Positions 5,993-56,395 of a stretch of 64,000 nt of DNA are shown here, piece after piece (the first letter of the stretch is position 1; each line of letters opens with the position of its first letter). Origin of the DNA: Patescibacteria group bacterium (GTDB lineage Bacteria > Patescibacteriota > Patescibacteriia > PEXW01); NCBI GenBank assembly GCA_041671325.1, contig JBAZBR010000004.1, positions 4,004 through 68,003 of the forward strand, written 5' to 3'. The notes under the pieces are model-generated. The model worked only from the letters and a program-made list of their open reading frames with translations, was not told the DNA's origin and ran no database searches. Made by a program: the position numbers and the translations under genes.

Positions 5993-6031
5993 TCAGGCGC
6001 TTGACCACTTGGTCCGGCGCCTTTTCTTTTT
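5993..6031 (+). terminator. Rho-independent terminator, paralogous copy of the one at 4553
   Basis: CAGGCGCTTGACCACTTGGTCCGGCGCC followed by TTTTCTTTTT. Confidence 0.5.
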
Positions 6032-6039
6032 AAAACAAT

Positions 6040-6393
6040 TTATCCCGCGGCCTGGACCACGTTTTTGAAAACCGTGGAAAACAAAGTCCAGGAAACAATT
6101 ACCAAAAACATGCCAATGACTGCGCCGATAAGCAGTTTTCGGGAGTGCGTTTCCGAGTCTTCATTACCCCCAGCGGTAATCTTAACTATAATGCCGTAAA
6201 GGAGCATGACCGTTGAAACAACCCCGATTATGCCCAGAACCACGTTGGCAATACTGAAAAGGAAAGGCTTGATATCCAGCGTGTAAAGATTGGCTTGGGG
6301 CCCAATATTTTCCGTGGTAGTAGCCGCGACAATACGGGGCGATAAGTTGATTAATAAAGTAATTAAAAAGGGAAAGTATTTCTTTAGTTTCAT
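6040..6393 (-). CDS. VirB2/TrbC-like (type IV secretion-type) pilin family protein, divergent paralog
   Basis: Signal peptide, then two hydrophobic helices, with the AGGNED core shared with the next three genes. Confidence 0.45.
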   Translation of the reverse strand: MKLKKYFPFLITLLINLSPRIVAATTTENIGPQANLYTLDIKPFLFSIANVVLGIIGVVSTVMLLYGIIVKITAGGNEDSETHSRKLLIGAVIGMFLVIVSWTLFSTVFKNVVQAAG

Positions 6394-6459
6394 TTTTTAG
6401 ATAAAGCTTGGTTTACATAAAAAAGCCGTCAAAGTCGGTTTAGGCTTGAACAGAAAAAC

Positions 6460-6822
6460 TTAGTTAGTGACTTGGGCGGTCGTCTTTAGAACAAAGTTGA
6501 CGATTGCCCAAGAAAGCAGGACGACTATCAGGCCAACGACTGCCGAAGAGATCAGTCTTTTGGCCGTATCAGTTTTGTCCTCATTGCCGCCAGAAGTTGC
6601 CAAGGAAAAAACACCGTAAAGAATTACTACTAAGGCGATTAAACCCAATAAACCCAGAATAAAGCTAACAACATTCAAAATAGTTTGTTTCAGGTCTGTG
6701 GAAGTAAAACCCAGCGAGCCGGCAAAAGTCGTGTCAAAAGACACGGCCAAAGCCATGGCTGGCAGGGCTATAACGGTTAAGCTTATTAAGGTAGCAAAAA
6801 GGTATTTGTTAGGTTTTTTCAT
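6460..6822 (-). CDS. VirB2/TrbC-like pilin family protein (paralog 2)
   Basis: Signal peptide ending ...AMALA, then VSFDTTFAGSLGFTSTDLK, two TM helices and a GGNEDK motif. Confidence 0.5.
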   Translation of the reverse strand: MKKPNKYLFATLISLTVIALPAMALAVSFDTTFAGSLGFTSTDLKQTILNVVSFILGLLGLIALVVILYGVFSLATSGGNEDKTDTAKRLISSAVVGLIVVLLSWAIVNFVLKTTAQVTN

Positions 6823-7200
6823 TTATAATCCGCTTGGGCTCCCGGCTACTTGGTTGGCTGTTTTAAGCACAAAATTCACGATTGCCCAAGCCAGCAAGAC
6901 AATAACCAAACCAACTGAGGCTGAAGAAATTATCTGTTTGGCTTTGTCTACTTTGTCCTCATTGCCGCCTGCAGTCATCCAAATAAATCCAGCATAAAGA
7001 ATAAAGACAACGGCAATCAAGCCCAAGAGGCCTAAGACGAAGGTAATAACATTCAATACGGCCTGTTTTAAGTCTACCGAGGTAAAACCCAGCGAGCCGG
7101 CAAAAGTCGTGTCAAAAGACACGGCCATGGCAGCCATTGGCAAGGCTAGGCTAATTAATGACAAACCGAGAGCGGCAAGGTGTTTGTTAGTAAGTTTCAT
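6823..7200 (-). CDS. VirB2/TrbC-like pilin family protein (paralog 3)
   Basis: Same architecture. More than 70% identical to its neighbours in the VSFDTTFAGSLGFTS...LLAWAIVNFVLKT core. Confidence 0.5.
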   Translation of the reverse strand: MKLTNKHLAALGLSLISLALPMAAMAVSFDTTFAGSLGFTSVDLKQAVLNVITFVLGLLGLIAVVFILYAGFIWMTAGGNEDKVDKAKQIISSASVGLVIVLLAWAIVNFVLKTANQVAGSPSGL

Positions 7201-7305
7201 ATACCCTTATATTAACGCAATTTGCCGGAGAATTACAATAGCTATTACTAAAAACCCCCAGGTTTTAGCCGAAAGGGTTTTTAGTTTAATTAATAATTAT
7301 GTTAA

Positions 7306-7674
7306 TTAGGCGGTCACTTGATTGGTAGTCTTCAACACGAAGTTGACGATCGCCCAAGCCAGCAAAACCACAACTAAACCGATACAAGCTGAAGAAATGA
7401 TTTTCTTAGCTGAATCAACCTTATCTTCATTGCCACCCGCAGTCAGCCAGATAAAGCCACCGTAAAGAATCATGATAACCGCGATCAAGCCCAAGAGGCC
7501 TAATACAAAGGTAATCACGTTCAAAATCGTTGCCTTCAAATCAGTTGAAGTGAAGCCCAATGAACCGGCAAAAGTAGTATCAAAAGACACGGCTAAAGCC
7601 GCTATTGGTAAGGCCATTACACCCAGGGTTGCAGCGGTTGCAATTAAATATTTTTTGTTTAATTTCATAAACAC
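7306..7674 (-). CDS. VirB2/TrbC-like pilin family protein (paralog 4)
   Basis: Same architecture as the previous three genes. Confidence 0.5.
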   Translation of the reverse strand: MFMKLNKKYLIATAATLGVMALPIAALAVSFDTTFAGSLGFTSTDLKATILNVITFVLGLLGLIAVIMILYGGFIWLTAGGNEDKVDSAKKIISSACIGLVVVLLAWAIVNFVLKTTNQVTA

Positions 7675-7865
7675 ACCCCCTTTCCGATTTTTCGGTATAT
7701 TAGTCTAATCTAATTAAATCTTAGCTTATTTTGCTTAAAAGTCAAAGCTTTTAAACAGGTTATTGTACGCTTATTCAGAAAATAAATCAAGCCCCCAGGT
7801 TATTAGGGAAAAGTGGTAAAAAAATGAGTTTTTTGTCTTAACTTAGCTAAAAATTAGGATTTTAG

Positions 7866-8100
7866 GGTCCCCGTAAATCAGGCGCGCAAGCCCGCGAAAG
7901 CGGGATGAGCACGGATTTACGGGGAGAGGGGCACACTAATAGGGTCCCCACGAACGAGTAGCGGACCCCGCGGCCGCGGGGGAGTACGCATCTGCGGGGA
8001 GAGGGGCACTAAAAGGCTTTCTAAGAATAGGGGTCCCCATAAACGTGGCACGGAGCGGAGCGAGTACGCGTTTATGGGGAAAAGCGGCACATTTGTGGAG
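7866..8100. repeat. Three tandem ~77-88-nt hairpin units with conserved GGGTCCCC and GGGGAGAGGGGCAC flanks
   Basis: Unit stems are CCCCGTAAATC/GATTTACGGGG and CCCCATAAACG/CGTTTATGGGG; the middle unit is degenerate. The array lies in a divergent intergenic region, and the overlapping minus-strand ORF 7917-8114 looks spurious. Confidence 0.5.
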
Positions 8101-8324
8101 TCTGGAGTGGCCAAACGTTCAGTTTGGACACGAAAGGCGGAACAAATGTTGACGCGTGCGCCGTCGCGCCGTCGCGGTTTTATCGTGGATAACTCGGCCT
8201 TTTTTTGCCAAAACCTGTGTTAGCCTTAATTTAGTCAGTAAACAAACGCCATTCATTTCAATCCTGGAAAGGAGGTGAGTGGCATAACTAAAACCGTTCT
8301 TTTTAAACTGAAAGGAGAATCCAA

Positions 8325-9017
8325 ATGCAACGGATTCTTATTCTCGCCGGTTTGCTGCTCGCCTTGGTGTTGGCTGGGTGTAGTGAGCAGAGCGTCGCTC
8401 CAACTACGCAGGCCTCTGCTCAAGGTTTCTACTACGATGAAGTAGCTCAGACGTTGTTTCTGGATGGAAAAAGCATCGATCCAAGCGATGCGGCTATATG
8501 GTTGATTTCCAATCAGCCATCTAGCCAAGTTGTTCAAGAATTAGGAAAGATTCCTAATTCAATTCAAGAGCAGATTCTCAAAGCAGGAATGATCGCTATG
8601 GGGGTGAGTTCAGACACAGCAGCAGCTGTCCTAAAAGAACTATCTCTTCTGTTAGGACAAAAAGAGTCTTCCCAAGCAACTTCTGCCGCGGCTTGCCGGC
8701 AATTTATTGAATACCAGCCCTCCGCTGGTGCAACGGGCTGCAGAGGTTATTGGACGGATCCGTACTGTGATGGCGATCCTTCCGATAATGAGTACATTTT
8801 TGCATATTATCCGACCTGGTCGGATACGCCAGATGATGTGAGATGGTATACATACAATGCGTATGTGTACTATGCCTTGTGGGTGGCGTATCGTGCAAAT
8901 TTGCTTGCTCGTGATGCCTGTTCTCCGGGTGTATATCTTTGCATTGGCGATCGCGGCACCTGGCTCGCCGGCGGGCCAGTCGTTGTCAGTCTATATGTTC
9001 TTGTTGCTCATAACTGA
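8325..9017 (+). CDS. Lipoprotein (lipobox LAGC), Tyr/Trp/Cys-rich C-terminus
   Basis: MQRILILAGLLLALVLAGCSEQ signal peptide and lipobox, preceded by a GGAG RBS. Confidence 0.55.
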   Translation: MQRILILAGLLLALVLAGCSEQSVAPTTQASAQGFYYDEVAQTLFLDGKSIDPSDAAIWLISNQPSSQVVQELGKIPNSIQEQILKAGMIAMGVSSDTAAAVLKELSLLLGQKESSQATSAAACRQFIEYQPSAGATGCRGYWTDPYCDGDPSDNEYIFAYYPTWSDTPDDVRWYTYNAYVYYALWVAYRANLLARDACSPGVYLCIGDRGTWLAGGPVVVSLYVLVAHN

Positions 9018-14878: not shown

Positions 14879-17800
14879 ATGGCGCTAAGACTTTGGTCAT
14901 CCAAACCAATTCGCGCATGGCTTTTTAGCGTTTGCGCAATTGCTCTTATCTTAGTCGGTCTGGGAGCATATTTTAAGTTTTTTTATCAACCTGCCAAGAC
15001 TGGACCACAAGCCTTTGACAAAGTAGTTATTCCGGCTGATGCAAAGCTTGGGCAATTTTTCTTGCAACCCACCAAAGCTGACGCCCTCGGCGTGGAAACC
15101 GACACCGCCTTTACTTTAAAAAGCAGCATCCCAATCCAGAAAAAAGACATAGAAGTTTCTTTAAGCATATTGCCAAAAGTGGATTTGGCAATTGCCTCAG
15201 TAAGCGATAAAGAATTTACCATCACACCCAAAGAAAAATTAGCTGCCGGTTCGGTTTATAAGATCAGCCTGGGTACTACGGTGAAGTCCGATACAGGTTC
15301 AGAAAAGCAGATTTTTTCCTGGGCCTACCAACCCAAAGAAAGTTTGGAAATTGACGGAACCTTGCCCAAGAACAAAGCCACAGGCGTACCCTTGAACACC
15401 GGCATTGAAGTGACATTCAATACTGATAAGGTAAAAGATTTTGAAAAAAATATTACTTTTTCACCTGCTCTGGAGGGACGTTTTGAAAAACACGGCCGAG
15501 TTGTGGCTTTTGTACCTAAAGAGCGTTTGCGGCCAAGTACCCTGTATTCAGTTGTGGTGGCTAAGGGCTTGCCGATTAATGGTTCTTCAGTCAGTTTAGC
15601 TAGTGATTTCATTTTTAAATTTGAAACCGCCGGCACAGATGATAATAATGGTTATAGTTATCCTGATTTTTTTGATCCCTCATTCCACGCGGTCAAGCCT
15701 GGTGAAGCGCCGGTAATTGAATCAAATAATACAATTGGAGACCTTACTTCTTCAAAGGCAGTGGTTTATAAATTCAAGGATAATGCGGAGCTGGTTGAAC
15801 GTTTAAAACCCCTGGATGAAATTCCAGAATGGGCCTATTGGTCCAGGAAGCAAGCACTGATTAAGCTTGAGGGTTTGCACAAGATCGGGGAATACACGCC
15901 GACTGTGGAAATTCATGATTACCAAAGATTCATCCGCATGCCTAATGGTTTTGATGCGCGTTATTATGTTATGGATTTAACTTTAAATAAGCAGCGTTTG
16001 CAGACCGTGGTGGCGGTCAGCGAAATTGGGGCGGCCATGTATGCCAGCAGGCAAGAGGCGGTTTTATGGGTTCAAGATTTAAAAACTAAGGAACCTTTGG
16101 TTGGCGGAAGCGTCAAGAATTTGGAAAGTTCAGAGGAAAAGATCATTGATAAAGATGGTTTAGCAAAATTGAAAACCCCGTCGGCGGTAACTGGCGGGAA
16201 TGATTCTTTGGCCACCCGTTCTTACTTTTCAGTCACAGCCAAGGACGGCCGGAATTTGATCGTGCCAATTGCCCAAAATTTTTACGGCAGTTGGATGAAT
16301 TATGGCATGGGCTGGCGCAGCAGTAATCCGGATTATTGGGCTTATGTTTCCACCGATCGGACACTATACCGACCAGATGACACGGTAAACGTTTGGGGCG
16401 TGGTCAGGGATAGGCAGGCCACAAATTTTACTGACCAGGAAGTTAAAATGGAAATTTGGACTTGGAATTATGTGGATGGCAACAGTGATTACATCCCGCT
16501 GGTTACCGAGACAGTCAAGACTGGTGAATATGGCAATTATATAAAATCCATAAAACTAGACCACCTGACCTCAGGCAGCTACACTTTATCAGTCAAGAAT
16601 TCTAACAATGAAATTATTGCCTCGAAATATTTTGAGGTCAGGACTTTTGCCAAACCGGCTTACCAAATCTTGGTTACCCCGGATAAGTTAGCCGGATTTG
16701 ATGGCGAAGAAATTACCTACAGCATCCAGACCCAATTTTTTGACGGTACGCCAGCACCGAACATTAAATTGGCTTATTCGGATTACGGCCAGGCAGGCGA
16801 AGCAGGGACTAAAATCATTACGGATGCGCAAGGCAAAGCTTCAGTTAAAGTCACTATCAACGCCAAAGACCCGAAGAACATCCAGTACATCCATAAAAGT
16901 TTCTTCCCGCAAGACGCAGCTGAAGGCGATATTGTGGCTGACACGGACGTGATTGGCTATCCTAGCGCAGTGACTTTTGACCCAACTGGCCAATTTGAAG
17001 GCAACAACGCCAAAATTTCTTTGACTTTATCCACGATCGACACCAGCAAAGTGAATACCACTTGGTATTATATGCAAGATATTAAGGGCGTGATTGTGCC
17101 GAATTCAGAAATAACTGGTACGGTTTATGAACAAATTACAAAAAAAACTAAAAGAGGAGAAGAATATAATTTCATTGAAAAAACCGTGGTGGATTTGTAT
17201 GACTATACCACCACTGATGAAAAACGTGAAGATTTTTCCGGCCTGACTAATGATAAAGGAATTTTTGAAAAAGAATTTAACTTAACCGGCACGCAATATC
17301 GGATTGATATTACGGCAAAAGACCAGAATGGGCGCAAGGTTACGCGCTCGGTTTATCTTTATAAAGACGGTTACCACGAATACAGCCAGAACAATGATTA
17401 TATGGTTACTGATGCCCAAGACCTGGCTGATGCCAACGGTGTTTCAAAGAAATATAACATCGGCGAAACCACGGAAATCCGCTTAATAAAAAATGGCCAG
17501 CCAGTCAAAGGCAAGGGGCCTTTCCTGTTCATTAAGATGCAAAACGGTATTAAAGAAGTAAGCGTAAAAGATGTTTCAACTTTTAAATATGTTTTTAAGG
17601 CTGAAGACGCGCCGAATATTAGTTTTTCCGCAGCCTACTTTAATGGCAGTAGTTTTATCCTGACTAATTATTCGGCCAATTTAGTTTTCAATGAACAGAG
17701 CCGGGCTTTAAACCTTAAGCTTGAACCCGGCCAGGCAACTTACGCGCCAGGCGATAAAGCCAAATTAAAAGTTACAGTGACTAATAAGCAAAATCAGCCA

Positions 17801-19831
17801 GTCAAGACTTTGGTGAATTTAAGCGCCATTGATGAGGCTATAACCGCCATTCAAATCGATAATACGCCAACACCCTTGGAAACTTTGTATACTTTTTTAC
17901 CCGATGGGTTGATTGAACAGTACGCCAGCCACTTGCCTACGAAATTGGAAACAATGGCTGAAGGCGGCGGGGGCGGTGATGGCGCCAGGAAAAACTTTAA
18001 AGATGCGGTTTTATTCACGGAAGTGGAAACTAATGCCGCTGGCCAAGCAGAGGTGGAATTTTCACTGCCGGACAACATTACTTCTTGGCGGATAACCGCC
18101 CAAGGCGTGACACAAGATTTATCTGCCGGGCAAAATTCCATCAAACTGCCAGTAACTAAGGCCATATTTGGGGTTTTGACCATGAGCGAAGAGTATGTGG
18201 TTGATGATCAGCCGGTGGTAGTAGCCGGAGCTTATGGTTCAGGTTTGAATGTTGACAGCGACATCAGTTTTAAACTTGAGGTACCAGGTTTAGGCGAGTC
18301 GCAAACCAAGACAGCCAAGGCCTTTACTTTGCAGAAGTTTGTTTTACCGAAATTTCAGGTCGGGGATCAGGAAATAATACTGACGGTTAAATCAGGCGAA
18401 CAAAGCGATGTTTTAAGTCGGAAATTTAAAGTCTTGAGCTCCAGGCTGACTAAAGCCGCCAATGAATTTTTGGAAGCCAAGCCCGGTTTGACCATTACTG
18501 GTTCAGATGTCGACAGGACTACCCTAGTCTTTAGTGATTTGGAGAGGGGACGGTTGATATCATCTTTATATGGTTTGCGTTGGGCTTATGGCAAAAGATT
18601 GGAAACCCATTTGTCAGCCAATATAGCCAAAGACTTACTGACACAACTTGGCATTCAAGGGATTGATTCAAATAAAGACCCTAATTTTTTCCTGAGTTTC
18701 CAGCAAGAAGACGGCGGTATTAGCCAAATAAATTATGGGAGTTCAAGTTTGACTTTAAGTGCTTATGCGGCCGGTGCTTCTGATGTATTTGATAAGGTGA
18801 AGTTACGCCAATATTTTGTGAACAAACTTGAACAGAAGAATGCTTCTACCGAGCAAATTGGCTTGGCGCTCTTGGGCTTGGCCAACCTCAATGAACCGGT
18901 TTTACCGGACATTGATAGTTTTTTAAATCTTAATAATCTTGATGCTGAAGACCAGCTGACTGCCGCTTTAGCGTATTATGCTTTAGGCAGTTATGAAAAA
19001 ACTGCTGGAATTATGGTGGAATTATTCAAGAAGTACGGGGTGGTAGAAAAGCCTTTTGCCAAATTAAACCTTGGCGGAAGCAATGACAGTAAAATCGTCA
19101 ATACAGCCAGGTTCTATATTCTGGCTGAAGGCTTGAAATACGAGCAAAGAGCAGGTTTAAGCAAGTATTTAGCCAATAATTTTCCCAAAGACACCATAAC
19201 TAATCTGGAAAGAGTTTTAGCCATTAAAGCCGCAGTCCCACTCTTGAATGACCAAAGCGTTAGTTTGGATAATTCGGTAAATAGCCAAGTTACTTCCATC
19301 CAGCTAAAAAATTCAGAAACCAAGACTATCTCTCTAACACCGGCAGAATTAAAAACTTTCAAGGTAGTCAGTTACCAGGGCTTGGTGGGCATTGCCGTCA
19401 GCTCCTTAACGCCAATTGATATTAATGCAGAAAAAAAGGACGACCGGTTAAGTTTGGACCGGACATACTTCAATATCACGGATTGGGGCAAGGCAATTAA
19501 GCAGGGTGATATTGTCAGGATTGACCTCAAACCAAAACTGAAAGGCAATATAATTGATACCACCTACTTTGTCATTGACGAATTGCCATCGGGTTTAGTG
19601 CTGTTAACCAATCCTTGGCAAAGGGGGATTGCCTATGATAATAATCAGGGCTATCCCTTGGAAATCGACGGTCAGCGCCTGACTTTTTACAGCAATGCCC
19701 AGCGCGCTTTCCATTATTATGCCCGGGTTTTGACGCCTGGTGGGTATGCGGCAGAACCAGCACTGATCCAAGGCCAGAACAGCCGAGAAATAATTAATTA
19801 TTCCGGTGCGCAAACTTTGGAAATTAAATAG
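14879..19831 (+). CDS. Large (1650 aa) membrane-anchored alpha-2-macroglobulin-family-like protein
   Basis: N-terminal TM helix. FKDAVLFTEVETNAAGQAEVEFSLPDNITSWRITAQGV resembles the bacterial A2M (YfhM-like) signature region. No CxEQ thioester motif was seen. Confidence 0.5.
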   Translation: MALRLWSSKPIRAWLFSVCAIALILVGLGAYFKFFYQPAKTGPQAFDKVVIPADAKLGQFFLQPTKADALGVETDTAFTLKSSIPIQKKDIEVSLSILPKVDLAIASVSDKEFTITPKEKLAAGSVYKISLGTTVKSDTGSEKQIFSWAYQPKESLEIDGTLPKNKATGVPLNTGIEVTFNTDKVKDFEKNITFSPALEGRFEKHGRVVAFVPKERLRPSTLYSVVVAKGLPINGSSVSLASDFIFKFETAGTDDNNGYSYPDFFDPSFHAVKPGEAPVIESNNTIGDLTSSKAVVYKFKDNAELVERLKPLDEIPEWAYWSRKQALIKLEGLHKIGEYTPTVEIHDYQRFIRMPNGFDARYYVMDLTLNKQRLQTVVAVSEIGAAMYASRQEAVLWVQDLKTKEPLVGGSVKNLESSEEKIIDKDGLAKLKTPSAVTGGNDSLATRSYFSVTAKDGRNLIVPIAQNFYGSWMNYGMGWRSSNPDYWAYVSTDRTLYRPDDTVNVWGVVRDRQATNFTDQEVKMEIWTWNYVDGNSDYIPLVTETVKTGEYGNYIKSIKLDHLTSGSYTLSVKNSNNEIIASKYFEVRTFAKPAYQILVTPDKLAGFDGEEITYSIQTQFFDGTPAPNIKLAYSDYGQAGEAGTKIITDAQGKASVKVTINAKDPKNIQYIHKSFFPQDAAEGDIVADTDVIGYPSAVTFDPTGQFEGNNAKISLTLSTIDTSKVNTTWYYMQDIKGVIVPNSEITGTVYEQITKKTKRGEEYNFIEKTVVDLYDYTTTDEKREDFSGLTNDKGIFEKEFNLTGTQYRIDITAKDQNGRKVTRSVYLYKDGYHEYSQNNDYMVTDAQDLADANGVSKKYNIGETTEIRLIKNGQPVKGKGPFLFIKMQNGIKEVSVKDVSTFKYVFKAEDAPNISFSAAYFNGSSFILTNYSANLVFNEQSRALNLKLEPGQATYAPGDKAKLKVTVTNKQNQPVKTLVNLSAIDEAITAIQIDNTPTPLETLYTFLPDGLIEQYASHLPTKLETMAEGGGGGDGARKNFKDAVLFTEVETNAAGQAEVEFSLPDNITSWRITAQGVTQDLSAGQNSIKLPVTKAIFGVLTMSEEYVVDDQPVVVAGAYGSGLNVDSDISFKLEVPGLGESQTKTAKAFTLQKFVLPKFQVGDQEIILTVKSGEQSDVLSRKFKVLSSRLTKAANEFLEAKPGLTITGSDVDRTTLVFSDLERGRLISSLYGLRWAYGKRLETHLSANIAKDLLTQLGIQGIDSNKDPNFFLSFQQEDGGISQINYGSSSLTLSAYAAGASDVFDKVKLRQYFVNKLEQKNASTEQIGLALLGLANLNEPVLPDIDSFLNLNNLDAEDQLTAALAYYALGSYEKTAGIMVELFKKYGVVEKPFAKLNLGGSNDSKIVNTARFYILAEGLKYEQRAGLSKYLANNFPKDTITNLERVLAIKAAVPLLNDQSVSLDNSVNSQVTSIQLKNSETKTISLTPAELKTFKVVSYQGLVGIAVSSLTPIDINAEKKDDRLSLDRTYFNITDWGKAIKQGDIVRIDLKPKLKGNIIDTTYFVIDELPSGLVLLTNPWQRGIAYDNNQGYPLEIDGQRLTFYSNAQRAFHYYARVLTPGGYAAEPALIQGQNSREIINYSGAQTLEIK

Positions 19832-49967: not shown

Positions 49968-51719
49968 ATGGACAATAATCAACCGGCGACACTAAAAACC
50001 TCGCCAAAACCAAAAAAATTAATCATTATCGTTGTGATTGCAGTTTTAGTCATCGGGGGAGCGGTGGCCGCCTTTGCCTTCATGGGAAAATCAAAAGATG
50101 CTGGCAAGACAACCAACACAACTTCAACCAATTCCGCCTCCAGCAGTAATGCCGCTGAAAACGTAAATACCACAAACTCGCCAGCCGTCCAAAATTCCAA
50201 CACAACCGTCTCCACCGTCGGCAAGGTGCTCGGCCAAAGTACTGGCAGCCTGCCTTATGCCGCCATTGATGAAGCCCATGTCGCTTCAGCAGTCATTGAC
50301 AGTAACGGCGGCGTCATCACCGCTACCCTGCCCAAAAACATAACCGCGTACCTTATCCTGCCGGAGGGCGAAGTAATCCAGGAGGCTTTTGTCAGCCTGA
50401 TCCCTTATACGGCCATGCCTTCGGGCCAGAAGCACGGCTATCTTTCAGATGAGCTCGGCTACGGCGTGCAGGTACAAATAAAAAGCCTACAGATGGGCGT
50501 CCGGGGCTATTTGGTTTTTGATACCACTGGCGGTATTGCCACTTCAGAGGCGGTTGCCAAGGAAAAATACTTCAACCGTTGCGACCCGAATTTCACTTGG
50601 TTTGACCCCTACCTTTGCGCCAAAAAGAATAAAGTTTCCGCCTCGACTGTCGTGACCAAGGATCTTACGGTCATCACGCCGATCCATGCGGCAAAATTAA
50701 ACAGCCTGGTCTTTCCCCGAAACACCATCCCCACGGGCATTAATGGGTTGGTGGCCTTGCCCATCAAGGGCGGCGACGTGTTCATACCCCAAAAAGTTGA
50801 CCAAGCGCTAGTAGATAAATTAACCCAGGATGGCCTCAGTAAATACAGCAGTATCACCCAAAAGTTGGAAGCCACCGGCTTGGCCCTGGCCTGGGGCGGC
50901 AATAAATTTTCACAGGAACAGCTGAAATTAATCAGATATCTGGCGGAAGAAAATTACTACCAGGAAGCAATCAAGGCGATAGCTATTTCCCAGCAATTTT
51001 CGAATTTGCTTGGGGCCGGCAGCCTGACTATTACGCGTGGAGAGTTTGACGACATGACCAATGAGGAACTAAAGGCTGACATTGACGAGAATCTGGTTGA
51101 CCTGGCAAAAATATTTCTTAAAGACGCCCAGGAAGTCACCCAAAAATTCGGTTTTGGCATTAAATCCATTACAGCGGCCGCCGCGATCAGCGATGCCGCC
51201 CAATTGGGCGTGGCCGGGGCCAGCCAAGCGCTCGGCACGGTCAGGAGCAATATTGAGAGCATTGGCACGTCGGATTCGACTTCCCTGGGCAGGCGCAGTA
51301 GCGCGTTGGAAAGTTCCGACTACACAAATTCCGGCGGCGGCGAACCGCAGATTACCCCCGAGATCCTGCAAGGCATGGCCAGAGACGTGATTAACCGCGT
51401 TTGGGCCGATCCCAAAGCGACGATTAAGGATATATTGAACGCTATGTCTCTGGCTCGTGCCACCGCCCTGGACAATGAGGATCAGATAATCAATGAGGGG
51501 CTGGAAAAAATCACGAAAATTTTGGAGCAAATGCTCAAAGATGCCGTCTGGGCCAAGGACTTTTTCGATATCGCCGCCATTGCCAAGATGCTGGGCCTGG
51601 ATGACCTTGCCGATGACGCCATCGCCAAAGGCAAAAAAGCCCCTATCTCGCAAAAACTCTGCGACCTGGTAAAAAAGAACTTAAGCAACTTCGGCCTCAA
51701 TAAATGCAGTATTGAATAA
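49968..51719 (+). CDS. Membrane-anchored extracytoplasmic hypothetical protein (583 aa)
   Basis: N-terminal TM helix, a Ser/Thr/Asn-rich linker, and an Ala-rich C-terminal region. Confidence 0.5.
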   Translation: MDNNQPATLKTSPKPKKLIIIVVIAVLVIGGAVAAFAFMGKSKDAGKTTNTTSTNSASSSNAAENVNTTNSPAVQNSNTTVSTVGKVLGQSTGSLPYAAIDEAHVASAVIDSNGGVITATLPKNITAYLILPEGEVIQEAFVSLIPYTAMPSGQKHGYLSDELGYGVQVQIKSLQMGVRGYLVFDTTGGIATSEAVAKEKYFNRCDPNFTWFDPYLCAKKNKVSASTVVTKDLTVITPIHAAKLNSLVFPRNTIPTGINGLVALPIKGGDVFIPQKVDQALVDKLTQDGLSKYSSITQKLEATGLALAWGGNKFSQEQLKLIRYLAEENYYQEAIKAIAISQQFSNLLGAGSLTITRGEFDDMTNEELKADIDENLVDLAKIFLKDAQEVTQKFGFGIKSITAAAAISDAAQLGVAGASQALGTVRSNIESIGTSDSTSLGRRSSALESSDYTNSGGGEPQITPEILQGMARDVINRVWADPKATIKDILNAMSLARATALDNEDQIINEGLEKITKILEQMLKDAVWAKDFFDIAAIAKMLGLDDLADDAIAKGKKAPISQKLCDLVKKNLSNFGLNKCSIE

Positions 51720-51853: not shown

Positions 51854-52219
51854 ATGAAAAAATTTCTCTATTGGGCGCCGCGAATTTTAAGCATTGTAAT
51901 GGTGTGTTTTATCTCCATCTTCGCTCTGGATGTGTTTGATCAGAGTTATACTTTTTGGGAATTGGTGCTCGCGCTCTTCATGCACCTTTTGCCCTCAATC
52001 GTAGCGGTCATTATAATCATTATCGCCTGGAAAAGGGAGCAAATCGGCGGCTGGCTTTTCATTGCATTGGGTATGGGATTTGTGTTTATCGGCAGGTTTG
52101 AACTGATGGCGATTTTAATTGTCACCCTTCCGATCATCATCATTGGTGCGCTGTTTTTATTGCACTATTATAAATATGTAAAAGGGGCGAAAGATTCTGG
52201 AGGCGTTGGGGAAAGTTAA
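51854..52219 (+). CDS. Multi-TM membrane protein (hypothetical)
   Basis: Four TM helices. Confidence 0.4.
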   Translation: MKKFLYWAPRILSIVMVCFISIFALDVFDQSYTFWELVLALFMHLLPSIVAVIIIIIAWKREQIGGWLFIALGMGFVFIGRFELMAILIVTLPIIIIGALFLLHYYKYVKGAKDSGGVGES

Positions 52220-52498
52220 CTAATAGGAGGTAAGTTTTTAGTTTCTTGATTGTTCCCTTATAAAATATGGGGATTTTGAGTTATCCACAACATTCTTTGC
52301 TTTTTTTATTAATATATTAAATTAAGGTTTTTTATGAATGGTATATAGAAACGAATAATATGCAATAAATACAGGAGATATATGATGATAATTAGAGTAT
52401 TTACTCATATATGAACTGTTAATCATGCCGATTTGACAATAAAAATGACATATGATAGATTAAACCGTGCTATGAATTATAATTAACAACCAACAACT

Positions 52499-52894
52499 AT
52501 GAACGAAAACAACCCACTCAATAGACTATTGGTGAGCGATTCCCAAGATGTTAATAAAGAAGAGTTGGCAAATTTGCTTGAACCGTACGTTTTTATCAAT
52601 AAAGATTCGAAATCTTTTGATTTTTCATCCAAGTTTCACGGACTTCCCACTCATGCCGATAGAATTCTTATTATTTTTGCAGCAGTGAAGGCAAGGCATA
52701 TAATTTTACAAACGGAAGATAGAATTACGCCCTCTGAAATTATCAAAATGGAGGTTGCGGCTGAAGGCAGCATAAAAGGTACATTAAAAAGGCTTTCTGA
52801 CGATGGTGAGATAAAAGCAGATAAAGGTAAGTATTATCTACCAAATTATAAAATTCCAAAGCTTGTTGAGCATTTTAAATCTTTTAATAAGTAG
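52499..52894 (+). CDS. Small wHTH-like protein, paralog 1 of 3 in an AT-rich island
   Basis: The C-terminal KGTLKRLSDDGEIKADKGKYYLPNYK resembles a winged-helix wing. It is a paralog of the next two genes. Confidence 0.4.
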   Translation: MNENNPLNRLLVSDSQDVNKEELANLLEPYVFINKDSKSFDFSSKFHGLPTHADRILIIFAAVKARHIILQTEDRITPSEIIKMEVAAEGSIKGTLKRLSDDGEIKADKGKYYLPNYKIPKLVEHFKSFNK

Positions 52895-52899
52895 ATATT

Positions 52900-53304
52900 A
52901 TGGATAATAATATAGAAAAAAGAATTTCAGATATTGAAATACGTCTAAAGAAACTTGAAGAAAAAAATAAAATAGTGATTAGTCAAGGGGACGTGAAAAG
53001 GGCTCAATTATCATTGGGTGAATTTCTTTCTACAAAACTAATCAGCAATGATGTTGAGCGCACTCTAGCAATTGCATATTATTTGGAATTTTATGAAAAA
53101 ATGCAACAATTTAATATTAGTGATCTTGAAAACGGATTTCGTTCCGCTCGTTATAAATTGCCTAAAAATATAAACGATAAAGTAAATATGAATATTAAGA
53201 AAGGTCACCTTGCTGAAGAAAAAGGAAAAAAAGATTTCAAAAAAGCATGGTATATCACCGACGCGGGTGTAAAATATATTGAGACAGAATTAAATAATAA
53301 GTAA
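52900..53304 (+). CDS. Small wHTH-like protein, paralog 2 of 3
   Basis: LAIAYYLEFYE...KKGHLAEEKGKKDFKKAWYITDAGVKYIE. Confidence 0.4.
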   Translation: MDNNIEKRISDIEIRLKKLEEKNKIVISQGDVKRAQLSLGEFLSTKLISNDVERTLAIAYYLEFYEKMQQFNISDLENGFRSARYKLPKNINDKVNMNIKKGHLAEEKGKKDFKKAWYITDAGVKYIETELNNK

Positions 53305-53305
53305 T

Positions 53306-53710
53306 ATGTCAGAGGAACAAATGCAGAAAATATTAGCTCAACTTTTAGATCACGATAAAAGAATCCGTACACTTGAGGCTTGTGATGTTAATTCTGAAAT
53401 CCCTAAAACGGAGAAGGAAGCTACCCTTGCGGAGATAGTACATGGGAAGATTTTTAAATCCGGGCAAGAAAAAATCGCAGTGATTGTTGGATATTACGAA
53501 CTAATACTCCATCAGTCACCTGTCAATGAAACAAATATTCGAACCGGTTGGTTAAAGGGAAAACTTGATGGAAAATATCGTAGCAATTTACTCGAACGTA
53601 CTGTTAGTGATGCATTAGTTAGAGATTTAGAAAATGGCGCATACGATCTCTCCCAAACGGGTGAAAAATTTTTTAATAATTTTCTAAAATCAAATGTTGG
53701 AAAAGCTTAA
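53306..53710 (+). CDS. Small wHTH-like protein, paralog 3 of 3
   Basis: IAVIVGYYELIL...LENGAYDLSQTGEKFFNNFL. Confidence 0.4.
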   Translation: MSEEQMQKILAQLLDHDKRIRTLEACDVNSEIPKTEKEATLAEIVHGKIFKSGQEKIAVIVGYYELILHQSPVNETNIRTGWLKGKLDGKYRSNLLERTVSDALVRDLENGAYDLSQTGEKFFNNFLKSNVGKA

Positions 53711-54443
53711 GCAAGAGTTAAGTAGGAGACTTAGTGACGAACAACTTATTGAGAATTTATTTTTTAGTTATCAGAGGATCTCAGAAAAGTTTATTGCTCA
53801 AAAACCAGTTGATTTATTGCAAAATACGGGCTTATTTGTCGAATCCGCACTACGCGTGGCGGAACATTTCATTTTAGGCGCTCACACCTCTCTTGGAAAA
53901 GAATTTGATATTGATAATTGTATACAGAAATTAGAAAAATCATCTGGTGCTGATGGTTTGAGAATTCATGTGGCGCGGTTAAGTCGAGCAATCTACGATT
54001 TTCGCTCTCGGAAAAAGGGCGTACACTTGAAAGCTATTGACCCGATGATTATTGATGCTAGTGTAGTTTTTAATATCTGCACTTGGATATTTATTGAGAT
54101 ACTGAAGGAAAGCGGCGTATCAGATGCAGAAAAAACAATACATTTGCTTTTTACAAGAAAAACACCGCTCGTACAAGAAGTCGATGGGATTTTACGTACA
54201 ACAAATCCAAAACTTTCAGGAACTCAGCGTATCCTTATTCTACTTTATTCTGCCCCAAACGGATTATTTGAGGCAGAAATACTTGAAGGAGCAAAAAGAA
54301 AAGTTAAGAACAAAGACCATCTACATAAGGACCTCAAAAGCATGGATACCCGCGATCTTATTCATCAACGTTCAGATAGTAAATGGACATTATTTGGCCA
54401 AGGTTTCGGCGAAGCTGAGAAGCTAATTTCAAAGTACTCTTAA
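53694..54443 (+). CDS. HEPN-like (Rx4H) hypothetical protein, 249 aa
   Basis: ARLSRAIYDFRSRKKGVH contains an R-x4-H motif in a predicted all-alpha context. The gene overlaps the upstream gene by 17 nt. Confidence 0.4.
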   Translation: MLEKLKQELSRRLSDEQLIENLFFSYQRISEKFIAQKPVDLLQNTGLFVESALRVAEHFILGAHTSLGKEFDIDNCIQKLEKSSGADGLRIHVARLSRAIYDFRSRKKGVHLKAIDPMIIDASVVFNICTWIFIEILKESGVSDAEKTIHLLFTRKTPLVQEVDGILRTTNPKLSGTQRILILLYSAPNGLFEAEILEGAKRKVKNKDHLHKDLKSMDTRDLIHQRSDSKWTLFGQGFGEAEKLISKYS

Positions 54444-54584
54444 AACCAGCTTGGTAAAATGAATAATAATCCCAACTCCATAAGGAGTCTATTATTTTTT
54501 GTTTATTTTTAATTTGGATTATACTTCAATTACCCACTTCATCATGCTTATTAATTAATTTTTAACCCTTAACCAAAAACCCAT

Positions 54585-55067
54585 ATGACCGAATACAATC
54601 CCAAAACCGACTGCTGTCAGCCGTTTGATCCAACGCCCTGGCAGGACAAGGAAATCACCTGGAATAACAAGATTTTTGTTAAAGATCATGTGGCGAGTTT
54701 CTTCCATATCCCCATGAACATGGGGAAAGTTATTACCCGCAACCTGGCGCTCATTGATAAAGCCAATGCGCGGGCACCGTATCAATTAATGCTTACTGAT
54801 GAGAAATCCATGTGGGGTTCGGATATTTATATTGATGTTTCCAAAGAAGTTCCTGGTGCGGAAATGGCTACTTTATCCGGCACATACCTCACCAAAGTAT
54901 TTGAAGGTCCATACCAGAACGCGGGCAAATGGGCGCAAGAAATGCTGGCCTATGTGAAAGCCAAAGGCAAAGAATCGAAAAAACTGTATTTTTCCTACAC
55001 CACTTGCCCCAAGTGCGCCAAGAAGTACGGCAAGAATTACGTGGTTTTATTTTCTAAAATTAACTAA
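54585..55067 (+). CDS. Hypothetical protein (160 aa) with a C-terminal CPKC motif
   Basis: Clean ORF. No family recognised. Confidence 0.45.
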   Translation: MTEYNPKTDCCQPFDPTPWQDKEITWNNKIFVKDHVASFFHIPMNMGKVITRNLALIDKANARAPYQLMLTDEKSMWGSDIYIDVSKEVPGAEMATLSGTYLTKVFEGPYQNAGKWAQEMLAYVKAKGKESKKLYFSYTTCPKCAKKYGKNYVVLFSKIN

Positions 55068-55298: not shown

Positions 55299-55931
55299 AT
55301 GACTCAGCGGCGTATATACCAAGATGAATTTCCATATTTCGTAACTTTTCGGACGCTTGATAGCCAACCCTTGTTTGAGGATGAAAAAATGGCGGAGTTG
55401 TTTCGGCGCGAATTATTTGTATCGGCAAAAATCAAACATTTTGATATTTTTGCGTACCAAATAATGCCCGATCATATCCATGTTTTAACGCAAATAAATG
55501 TCGAGCGCACGCTTGAGAGCATGCGCTCGGGTGACTCGGGTGACGGGGATGGTGAAGATATCGTGAGCATGCGCTCGGGGGTTGGTAAAAATATTTTGTC
55601 ATCAAAACCCGAACGCACGTTCTCTAACGTGCGTGAGGGGGAAATCCACCCGATCTCCGCCAAAAGCACCCTTTCGAGGGTGCGGACCAAAACTCCCAAA
55701 TATAATATTTCCGATTTGATGCAATCCATCAAAGGCAATTTTTCCCGGAAAATCCATGAAGGCAATATTTGGCAAAAACGGTTTTATACCAAAATCGTGA
55801 ATACCCATAAATATTTGGAAACCGTGATTAATTATATTGAAAACAATCCAATCAAAGCGGAATTGCCGAAAAGATATCAACAAAAACCCTACCAATATTT
55901 CAATTGGCCGAAAATTCACGCCTTGTTTTGA
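55299..55931 (+). CDS. IS200/IS605-family Y1 (HuH) transposase-like protein, REP-associated tyrosine transposase candidate, with an in-frame low-complexity insertion
   Basis: MPDHIHVL carries the HuH motif. SDLMQSIKGNFSRKI...WQKRFY is the central IS200 block, and NYIENNP holds the catalytic Tyr. An extra ~70-aa Ser/Gly/Asp/Arg-rich segment is encoded by hairpin-forming DNA at 55500-55690. Confidence 0.65.
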   Translation: MTQRRIYQDEFPYFVTFRTLDSQPLFEDEKMAELFRRELFVSAKIKHFDIFAYQIMPDHIHVLTQINVERTLESMRSGDSGDGDGEDIVSMRSGVGKNILSSKPERTFSNVREGEIHPISAKSTLSRVRTKTPKYNISDLMQSIKGNFSRKIHEGNIWQKRFYTKIVNTHKYLETVINYIENNPIKAELPKRYQQKPYQYFNWPKIHALF

Positions 55932-56152: not shown

Positions 56153-56395
56153 ATGTATTACCTCTATATTTTGAAATGCAAGGATAAGACGCTTTATACC
56201 GGCATTACCACAGATTTAAAAAGGCGTTTAGCTGAACATAACTCATCAAAACTCGGGGCAAAATATACCAAAGGCCGGAGGCCGGTTAAGTTGGTTTATA
56301 CTAAAAAATTTCGAACTCGGTCTACAGCAACAAAGACAGAAGCACGGATAAAAAATTTATCGCGGACAGAGAAACTGCGTTTAATTAAAAAGTAG
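56153..56395 (+). CDS. GIY-YIG nuclease family protein
   Basis: MYYLYILKCKDKTLYTGITTDLKRRLAEH. The gene starts on the nucleotide after the upstream stop codon (taaATG). Confidence 0.75.
   Translation: MYYLYILKCKDKTLYTGITTDLKRRLAEHNSSKLGAKYTKGRRPVKLVYTKKFRTRSTATKTEARIKNLSRTEKLRLIKK

Follow-up and report, generated by a model that had tools for sequence, protein, structure and literature searches.

A mobile Patescibacteria operon encoding a predicted HEPN-winged-helix RNase effector and a variable set of small partner proteins

We describe a four-gene operon in a 64,000-nt stretch of DNA from a Patescibacteria group bacterium (hereafter, the window), in which three genes for small proteins precede a gene for a 249-aa protein, p4. 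In this protein, a HEPN fold whose active-site signature (Ex3R and R-x6-H) is intact is followed by a C-terminal winged helix. The layout of one effector plus partners recurs in many Patescibacteria and in a distant superfamily (20-33% identity, several hundred clusters), and the cassette moves between unrelated genomic sites. We think it probable, though well short of certain, that this is an autonomous, horizontally mobile operon and an uncharacterized HEPN-RNase effector module of the toxin or abortive-infection (Abi) type, with winged helix-turn-helix (wHTH) partners as regulators. As its protein families are unannotated and often lie within restriction-modification (R-M) operons, there is a strong case for considering the cassette a candidate toxin or anti-phage module, RNase-based and so far undescribed.

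The genes, labeled p1 to p4 in order, are all on the + strand. The first, p1 (52499-52894; 131 aa), encodes a small partner protein of its own family; p2 (52900-53304; 134 aa) encodes an N-terminal coiled-coil-like helix and a wHTH domain; p3 (53306-53710; 134 aa) encodes a long N-terminal helix, a linker, and a winged-helix core; and p4 (53694-54443; 249 aa) encodes the HEPN domain and then the winged-helix domain. Gaps of 5 nt and 1 nt separate p1 from p2 and p2 from p3, while p3 and p4 overlap by 17 nt. An earlier interpretation of this DNA from its letters alone (the sequence-only reading) had placed four open reading frames (ORFs) at exactly these positions; the NCBI annotation has these four genes too (WCT08_04220 to 04205), each labeled a hypothetical protein, and homologs are many. 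The same reading described the block as AT-rich and compositionally distinct, and this is borne out by a GC content of 0.254 in the spacer (52220-52498), 0.347 in the cassette, and 0.289 in p2, compared with 0.453 in the 6 kb flanks and 0.430 in the window as a whole.

The two domains of p4 are both recognizable in its AlphaFold2 (AF2) model, which has a predicted local distance difference test (pLDDT) score of 85.4. Residues 1-155 (53694-54158) form the all-alpha helical bundle of the HEPN fold and constitute a predicted metal-independent RNase domain, and residues 158-249 (54165-54443 with the stop codon) form the three helices and beta-hairpin wing of a wHTH core. The sequence-only reading had proposed a HEPN domain for the 249-aa protein, which the fold and the conserved active-site motif now support, but had missed the C-terminal wHTH domain. 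Catalytic HEPN domains are marked by an Rx4-6H motif located where the long helix ends and the following loop starts, by a polar residue (usually N/D/H) after the arginine, and by an upstream Ex3[KR] motif in helix 2 (PMC3710099). In the p4 model, a helix spanning residues 87-108 is followed by a loop at 109-121, and the Rx4-6H motif, which reads R104-S-R-K-K-G-V-H111 (54003-54026) in the Rx6H register, sits at the end of this helix and the start of the loop. The accessory Ex3[KR] motif is E50-SAL-R54 (53841-53855).

The register of the motif was decided by conservation. The string ARLSRAIYDFRSRKKGVH, in which the sequence-only reading saw an R-x4-H motif, does occur in p4, and no other block of the close family is as conserved; R106-x4-H111 is literally there, and the string does contain the HEPN Rx4-6H motif, but the catalytic arginine is R104 and not R106. 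Within the close family, E50, R54, R104, and H111 are all invariant, as is R106. Among 35 superfamily members (20-33% identity), where R106 is no longer constant and the motif consensus is IRNKRGxxH, the only invariant residues are G46, E50, R104, H111, D121, L184, and G237. Since R104 and H111 are thus the only residues of the motif that are invariant across the superfamily, the functional motif is R104-x6-H111, a spacing that falls inside the Rx4-6H definition. The residue after R104 is S or T in the window subfamily and N in the superfamily consensus, polar either way. Because non-catalytic HEPN families lose the Rx4-6H motif (PMC3710099), its retention in p4 argues for a catalytically active RNase.

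Homologs of the cassette proteins are numerous. Close homologs of p4 form 115 clusters (50-77% identity), almost all of 249-251 aa, and those of p3 and p1 form 25 and 13 clusters, respectively. An exhaustive profile search with p4 yielded 669 clusters at E <=1e-3 and 342 at E <=1e-10 (superfamily clusters counted at 50% identity), nearly all of them 250-260 aa long and matched over their full length. We fetched 63 loci with close p4 relatives, 7 from species-representative genomes and 52 from metagenomes; all 7 of the former belong to Patescibacteria (Paceibacterota, Minisyncoccia, Saccharibacteria). A viral origin was considered and rejected, as IMG/VR contains no relative, none of the fetched loci comes from a viral contig, and BFVD gives no structural match at E <=0.001.

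Wherever the upstream sequence of a locus is long enough, one to three small genes on the same strand as p4 lie ahead of it, and these match the p1 or p2/p3 profiles. Their number is nearly always two or three (L052 has a single one; related loci are cited by L number), and the gaps are between -44 and +46 nt in most loci. The p1-p2-p3 order of the window is repeated in L008, L039, and L043; the other partner sets draw on a p1-type gene or a member of a second small family (EGFF..PK.. type), a 71-aa protein, and one or two p2/p3-type genes, and fused versions of 222-264 aa are also found. At least three partner families occur in related cassettes. As iterated 'p1-like' hidden Markov models (HMMs) drifted into the second small wHTH-like family, the p1 class ('A') is treated here as heterogeneous. 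No single partner is obligatory, because there are cassettes without a p1-type gene and one without a p2/p3-type gene. When the same cassettes are compared, identity is 61-70% for p4, 50-55% for p3, 36-55% for p2, and 24-54% for p1, so that, by sequence identity, the partners are less well conserved than the effector.

Distant members show the same layout with some variation. In L068 (33% identity), genes for proteins of 130, 131, and 135 aa are followed by one for a 256-aa HEPN-wHTH protein; L070 has partners of 127 and 189 aa, L069 has one partner of 189 aa, and in L067 and L064 the partner lies downstream rather than upstream. The p1 HMM matches the first genes of L068 (E 4e-40) and L070 (E 5e-32). 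Upstream of the L068 cassette are NYN-domain and DUF3800 genes, and downstream of it is an 889-aa N6/N4 methyltransferase gene (1413-2747, 6003-8672), surroundings that look like a small defense island.

The sequence-only reading took the three small proteins for mutual paralogs, and this survives for p2 and p3 but not for p1, so there is no triplication. Pairwise BLASTP among the three is non-significant (E 0.4-1.0). With hhalign profiles built for each family from the related loci, p2 and p3 match at 99.75% probability (E 2.2e-27, 123 aligned columns, 18% identity) and can on this profile evidence be called true remote paralogs. The same comparison of p1 with p2 or p3 gives a probability below 1%, that is, no detectable relation at such sensitivity, and p1 represents a third, separate small family. 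A single-linkage chain of BLAST matches does connect p1 to p3, but we rejected it as a sign of homology, as the chain passes through a two-domain fusion protein (L047, below).

The wHTH fold that had been proposed for all three small proteins is likewise found with differing certainty. In p3, the structure prediction shows a helix at residues 3-25, a linker, and a winged-helix core at residues 41-128 with the three helices and wing of the wHTH fold. By its homology to p3, p2 is predicted to be a winged-helix protein as well, and the two probably pair via their N-terminal helices. For p1, a wHTH fold is probable: after a conserved N-terminal region with a DPL..L motif, its C-terminal half shows the wHTH-like pattern KIL..L.A.KA...ITPSEI...GSIKGTLK.L...GKYYLPNYKI, and there are weak matches to the N-terminal wHTH of AbiEi (E 0.0035, ~45 residues), to PDB 2lvs (E 0.39), and, in register, to the wHTH domain of p4 (hhalign, 30% probability).

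Several natural fusions connect these families. In L047 (352-1029), a 225-aa protein joins a p1-type domain (residues 2-118) to a p3-group wHTH domain (residues 144-223), and similar first genes of 222-264 aa are present in L005, L018, L024, L029, and L036. On plasmid PL131 of Natronomonas pharaonis, a 290-aa 'hypothetical protein' (NP_RS13255; L066:5992-6864) combines the same HEPN domain (IPRVIRAAYDIRNNRDSVH) with a C-terminal p1-type domain (E 1e-9), and the superfamily therefore reaches haloarchaeal plasmids. Both kinds of fusion, p1-type with p3-type and HEPN with p1-type, argue for a physical association of the proteins. Directly downstream of the cassette in L050 (6816-7496), a 226-aa protein has a C-terminal Hypoth_Ymh (PF09509) HEPN domain and an N-terminus that matches the iterated p1 profile (E 4e-38); it would therefore be a second HEPN effector at that locus, sharing a partner-type domain. 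The gene for NP_RS13255 adjoins an ISH6-like transposase.

The genomic neighborhoods point to mobility and to a frequent link with R-M systems. Outer flanks are wholly different between related loci. The cassette lies between hsdM and hsdS in L007, L013, L019/L020, L026, and L037, as well as in L006, where hsdR precedes hsdM; hsdM is upstream of it in L016, a Type ISP enzyme is beside it in L043, a methyltransferase fusion in L036, and ResIII helicases in L005, L029, and L050. Among the 23 distinct loci whose upstream flank is 3 kb or longer, 11 have adjacent R-M-type genes on the same strand, and a distant member, P0167, is downstream of a ResIII + RE_endonuc gene. The cassettes in the other half or so of the loci, the window included, are stand-alone and beside housekeeping genes (for example, dnaE in L018 and mur genes in L003). 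Of 25 loci compared, 17 have a cassette richer in AT than the flanks, and the differences are largest (-11 to -20 GC points) in non-R-M contexts. This foreign composition, together with unrelated neighborhoods that are often R-M operons, fits the horizontally acquired defense or toxin-antitoxin (TA) cassette that the sequence-only reading had envisaged. What that reading had set against itself was a lack of HEPN and wHTH folds, or a block of normal composition in conserved core synteny, and we find neither.

The cassette also has promoter-like and terminator-like signals of its own. In the AT-rich intergenic leader upstream of the operon (52220-52498, + strand, GC 0.25), a sigma-70-type promoter-like site (52433-52461, + strand; TTGACA-17 nt-TAGATT with extended TG) begins 66 nt 5' of the p1 start. 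Among 29 related cassettes, 21 have a perfect TTGACA 34-138 nt 5' of their first gene, usually with a -10-like element after the hexamer, and the cassette therefore brings its own promoter wherever it is located. The leader also contains a 10-bp perfect palindrome, TCATATATGA (52405-52414). Such palindromes are not conserved upstream of other cassettes, and a search for a conserved operator ahead of the first genes showed nothing but the -35 hexamer to be common to the cassettes. At the other end, 32 nt past the p4 stop codon, there is a terminator-like hairpin with a T-rich tail (54475-54488, + strand); it is suggestive only, as the regional count of such sites is no higher than in shuffled sequences.

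The flanking integrase or att sites that the sequence-only reading had in mind were not found at the window cassette, whose flanks contain no integrase or recombinase and which has no adjacent tRNA gene, the nearest being 7 kb away; the window thus offers no integrase, att site or target-site duplication, or tRNA target by which an integrative element or genomic island could be recognized. A single direct repeat, the exact 12-nt TGGGGAAAGTTA, does bracket the cassette (52207-52218 and 54721-54732, 2514 nt apart) and is the only one in the flanks. We rejected it as an island boundary or target-site duplication, as such a flanking pair fits chance (expectation in the region ~0.3) and one copy lies inside a gene: the upstream copy falls where the DUF7670 gene ends, the downstream copy within the hydrolase gene. 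The repeat is probably coincidental.

These two genes, encoding a DUF7670 membrane protein and a 'Bact_hydrolase', are the neighbors of the cassette in the window. Just upstream, a 583-aa ORF (49968-51719) has an N-terminal transmembrane segment, a Ser/Thr/Asn-rich region, and no Pfam match; at ~0.50, its GC content is notably above the window mean, in sharp contrast to the AT-rich cassette 0.8 kb further on. On the downstream side, some 0.9 kb from the cassette, a gene related to IS200-like Y1 transposases (55299-55931, 210 aa), which matches Pfam in two separate stretches and has a low-complexity insert, is followed by a small GIY-YIG nuclease-domain gene (56153-56395, 80 aa). These two may be mobile-element remnants within this same variable region. 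Elsewhere in the window is a very large ORF (14879-19831, 1650 aa).

We propose the following mechanism. HEPN RNases dimerize; p4 would do the same and cleave RNA, leading to arrest of the cell or of an invading phage. The small winged-helix partners would bind p4, as the natural fusions suggest, and may hold it inactive and/or serve as trigger-sensing, DNA-binding, autoregulatory components. By analogy with PrrC, R-M-embedded copies could provide a second line of defense that is released on restriction failure, and stand-alone copies, including the one in the window, might behave in the manner of type II-style TA/Abi modules.

A number of observations weigh against this proposal. Around the R104/H111 motif, the pLDDT of the p4 model falls to 58-65, and the S/T that follows R104 in the window subfamily is atypical compared with the usual N/D/H. 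The partner set is variable, with one locus lacking a p2/p3-type gene and two lacking a p1-class gene; the wHTH fold of p1 rests on weak sequence evidence; and the inhibitor, sensor, and repressor roles of p1-p3 are not separable by sequence. No cassette protein matches a PADLOC defense model or a curated family, and neither p1-p3 nor the flanking genes match an MNT nucleotidyltransferase, the canonical HEPN antitoxin. Finally, no R-M or other recognizable defense gene adjoins the cassette in the window.

The alternative that best survives these data, although we regard it as unlikely, is a selfish type II-like TA addiction module without a phage-defense role. In it, p4 would be the RNase toxin and at least one upstream wHTH protein the labile antitoxin repressing the operon promoter; the association with R-M genes would come from selfish or mobile genes hitchhiking together in variable regions and not from functional coupling. 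Much of the above can be read this way: genes for small DNA-binding proteins lie upstream of and overlap the nuclease gene, the cassette has its own promoter and a foreign composition, it stands alone in housekeeping neighborhoods in about half of the loci, as in the window, and divergence is faster in the partners than in the effector, which is common for antitoxins. However, two or three partner genes from at least three families are atypical of a TA pair, and the exact placement between hsdM and hsdS, seen in several independent lineages, is the pattern that predicted functional defense genes (10.1101/2024.01.29.577857). TA and Abi functions are moreover not mutually exclusive, and this alternative overlaps mechanistically with the effector module that we favor, differing mainly in biological role.

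We consider improbable a purely regulatory cassette, in which the four proteins would be DNA-binding transcription factors or nucleoid-associated proteins that control their neighbors, such as R-M operons, in the way of C-proteins or RptR, and the HEPN domain of p4 would be a non-catalytic dimerization or ligand-binding domain, as in the MtlR type. The operon does encode at least three predicted winged-helix domains (p2, p3, and the C-terminus of p4), probably with a fourth in p1; small repressors of Type I R-M islands are known (RptR, PMC12255303); and some HEPN families are non-catalytic (PMC3710099). Yet those families lose the Rx4-6H motif, whereas R104, H111, and E50 do not vary even among superfamily members at 20% identity; the neighborhoods contain no consistent target operon, and the upstream regions no conserved operator beyond promoter hexamers. 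The strict retention of catalytic residues and the lack of a constant target operon disfavor this explanation. That the genes form no functional unit at all, being either ORFs that arose by chance in AT-rich DNA or the decaying remains of genes, has virtually no probability: the sole point for it is that no protein has a curated-family match, AT-rich DNA yields long chance ORFs less readily than GC-rich DNA, the structure predictions are confident, and it is refuted by conservation, with synteny maintained, 115 close and 669 distant full-length p4 clusters, and 25 and 13 sets of close homologs for p3 and p1.

Going beyond the effector module that we favor, we tentatively raise a bolder possibility, which we hold to be plausible but not probable: that the operon is an undescribed multi-component immune system, in which a HEPN-wHTH RNase is under the control of an exchangeable set of small winged-helix adaptors. 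These adaptors would sense R-M failure, unmodified or foreign DNA, or phage proteins, and then license RNA cleavage. If so, the system would be common among Patescibacteria, other uncultured bacteria would have several hundred distant relatives of it, and haloarchaea would have a fused version.

HEPN RNases in R-M loci are a recognized theme, and Patescibacteria, or the Candidate Phyla Radiation (CPR), have tiny genomes with few recognized defense systems and a poorly charted repertoire. To this repertoire, a compact RNase cassette that carries its own promoter and jumps between genomes, also into hsdM-hsdS junctions, would contribute a concrete candidate open to testing. The p4 family, with its HEPN-plus-wHTH architecture, has no Pfam, NCBIfam, PADLOC, or PHROGs model and no solved relative, and the three partner families are likewise without a model. 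As a control architecture for a HEPN toxin, the combination is unusual: one conserved enzyme is accompanied by two or three winged-helix partners that evolve fast, are shuffled, and in some cases are fused. It may show how HEPN RNases are silenced and triggered without an MNT or ATPase regulator.

Comparison with curated libraries leaves the cassette without a close counterpart. Searches of Pfam, NCBIfam, PHROGs, and PADLOC with all four proteins and with alignments of distant members gave nothing significant (in PADLOC-DB v2.0.0, only marginal matches with E >=0.0035 for the window proteins), and searches of PDB sequences with single sequences and profiles gave only marginal wHTH or coiled-coil matches; no Pfam, PADLOC, or PDB-sequence family covers the p4 superfamily. 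The nearest parallels are functional ones. PrrC and RloC, of Type I R-M loci such as EcoprrI, are HEPN RNases encoded inside an hsdM/hsdS/hsdR operon, just as several cassettes lie between hsdM and hsdS. HEPN RNases embedded in this way have been proposed to be latent second-line effectors that act once restriction is neutralized, as demonstrated for PrrC (PMC3710099). However, PrrC and RloC are single genes with a large N-terminal ABC-ATPase regulatory domain and a C-terminal HEPN domain, whereas p4 is a 249-aa protein with the HEPN domain at its N-terminus, a wHTH at its C-terminus, and two or three small wHTH partner genes. No cassette gene encodes an ATPase domain, there is no sequence similarity to PrrC/RloC, and about half of the cassette copies, including the one in the window, have no R-M association.

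HEC-08 and the EC042_2821 (DUF3644) family offer a second parallel, being compact HEPN effectors found by 'guilt-by-embedding' in Hma and R-M operons, a line of evidence that is strong for the sizeable p4 superfamily as well. Phage defense by HEC-08, an embedded HEPN protein, depends on the Rx4-6H histidine (10.1101/2024.01.29.577857), and some members of the EC042_2821 family are wHTH-fused and located in R-M operons (PMC3710099). In contrast to the cassette, HEC-08 is a single-gene system with C-terminal zinc-ribbon-like domains, EC042_2821 carries restriction endonuclease (REase) and zinc-ribbon (ZnR) domains, and neither has multiple wHTH partner genes; Pfam DUF3644 matches neither p4 nor any of the 35 superfamily members. 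Ymh (PF09509) is another HEPN family of R-M operons, fused to variable N-terminal domains (PMC3710099), and the Ymh protein with the p1-like N-terminus in L050 lies directly downstream of the cassette. As a relative of p4, the Ymh family was rejected, given that there is no PF09509 match and that the superfamily profile aligns to the L050 Ymh protein with an hhalign probability of 0.1%. ApeA is a further example in the class of HEPN modules embedded in, or traveling with, R-M systems.

Among TA and Abi systems, HEPN-MNT (type VII) and RnlA-RnlB/LsoA-LsoB likewise have a HEPN RNase toxin in a tight operon with one or more small partners that hold the toxin inactive, and are mobile and linked to phage defense. 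They differ in that the cassette partners are of winged-helix type and come from at least three families, and that the toxin itself carries a wHTH domain; the cassette contains no RnlB-like partner. AbiE, in which AbiEi is a wHTH antitoxin and AbiEii a nucleotidyltransferase toxin, shares with the cassette a small wHTH protein encoded upstream of an Abi/TA effector, which it autoregulates, but the effector of the cassette is a HEPN protein and not a nucleotidyltransferase, and p1 lacks the C-terminal domain of AbiEi. The cassette has the generic layout of a type II-like TA/Abi module, with genes for small DNA-binding partners that immediately precede and overlap the toxin gene, all in one autonomous operon. 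On these comparisons, it belongs to none of PrrC/RloC, HEPN-MNT, DUF3644/HEC-08, and Ymh; the underlying principle is already known, and what is distinctive is the combination of a fixed HEPN + wHTH effector with shuffled small winged-helix partners.

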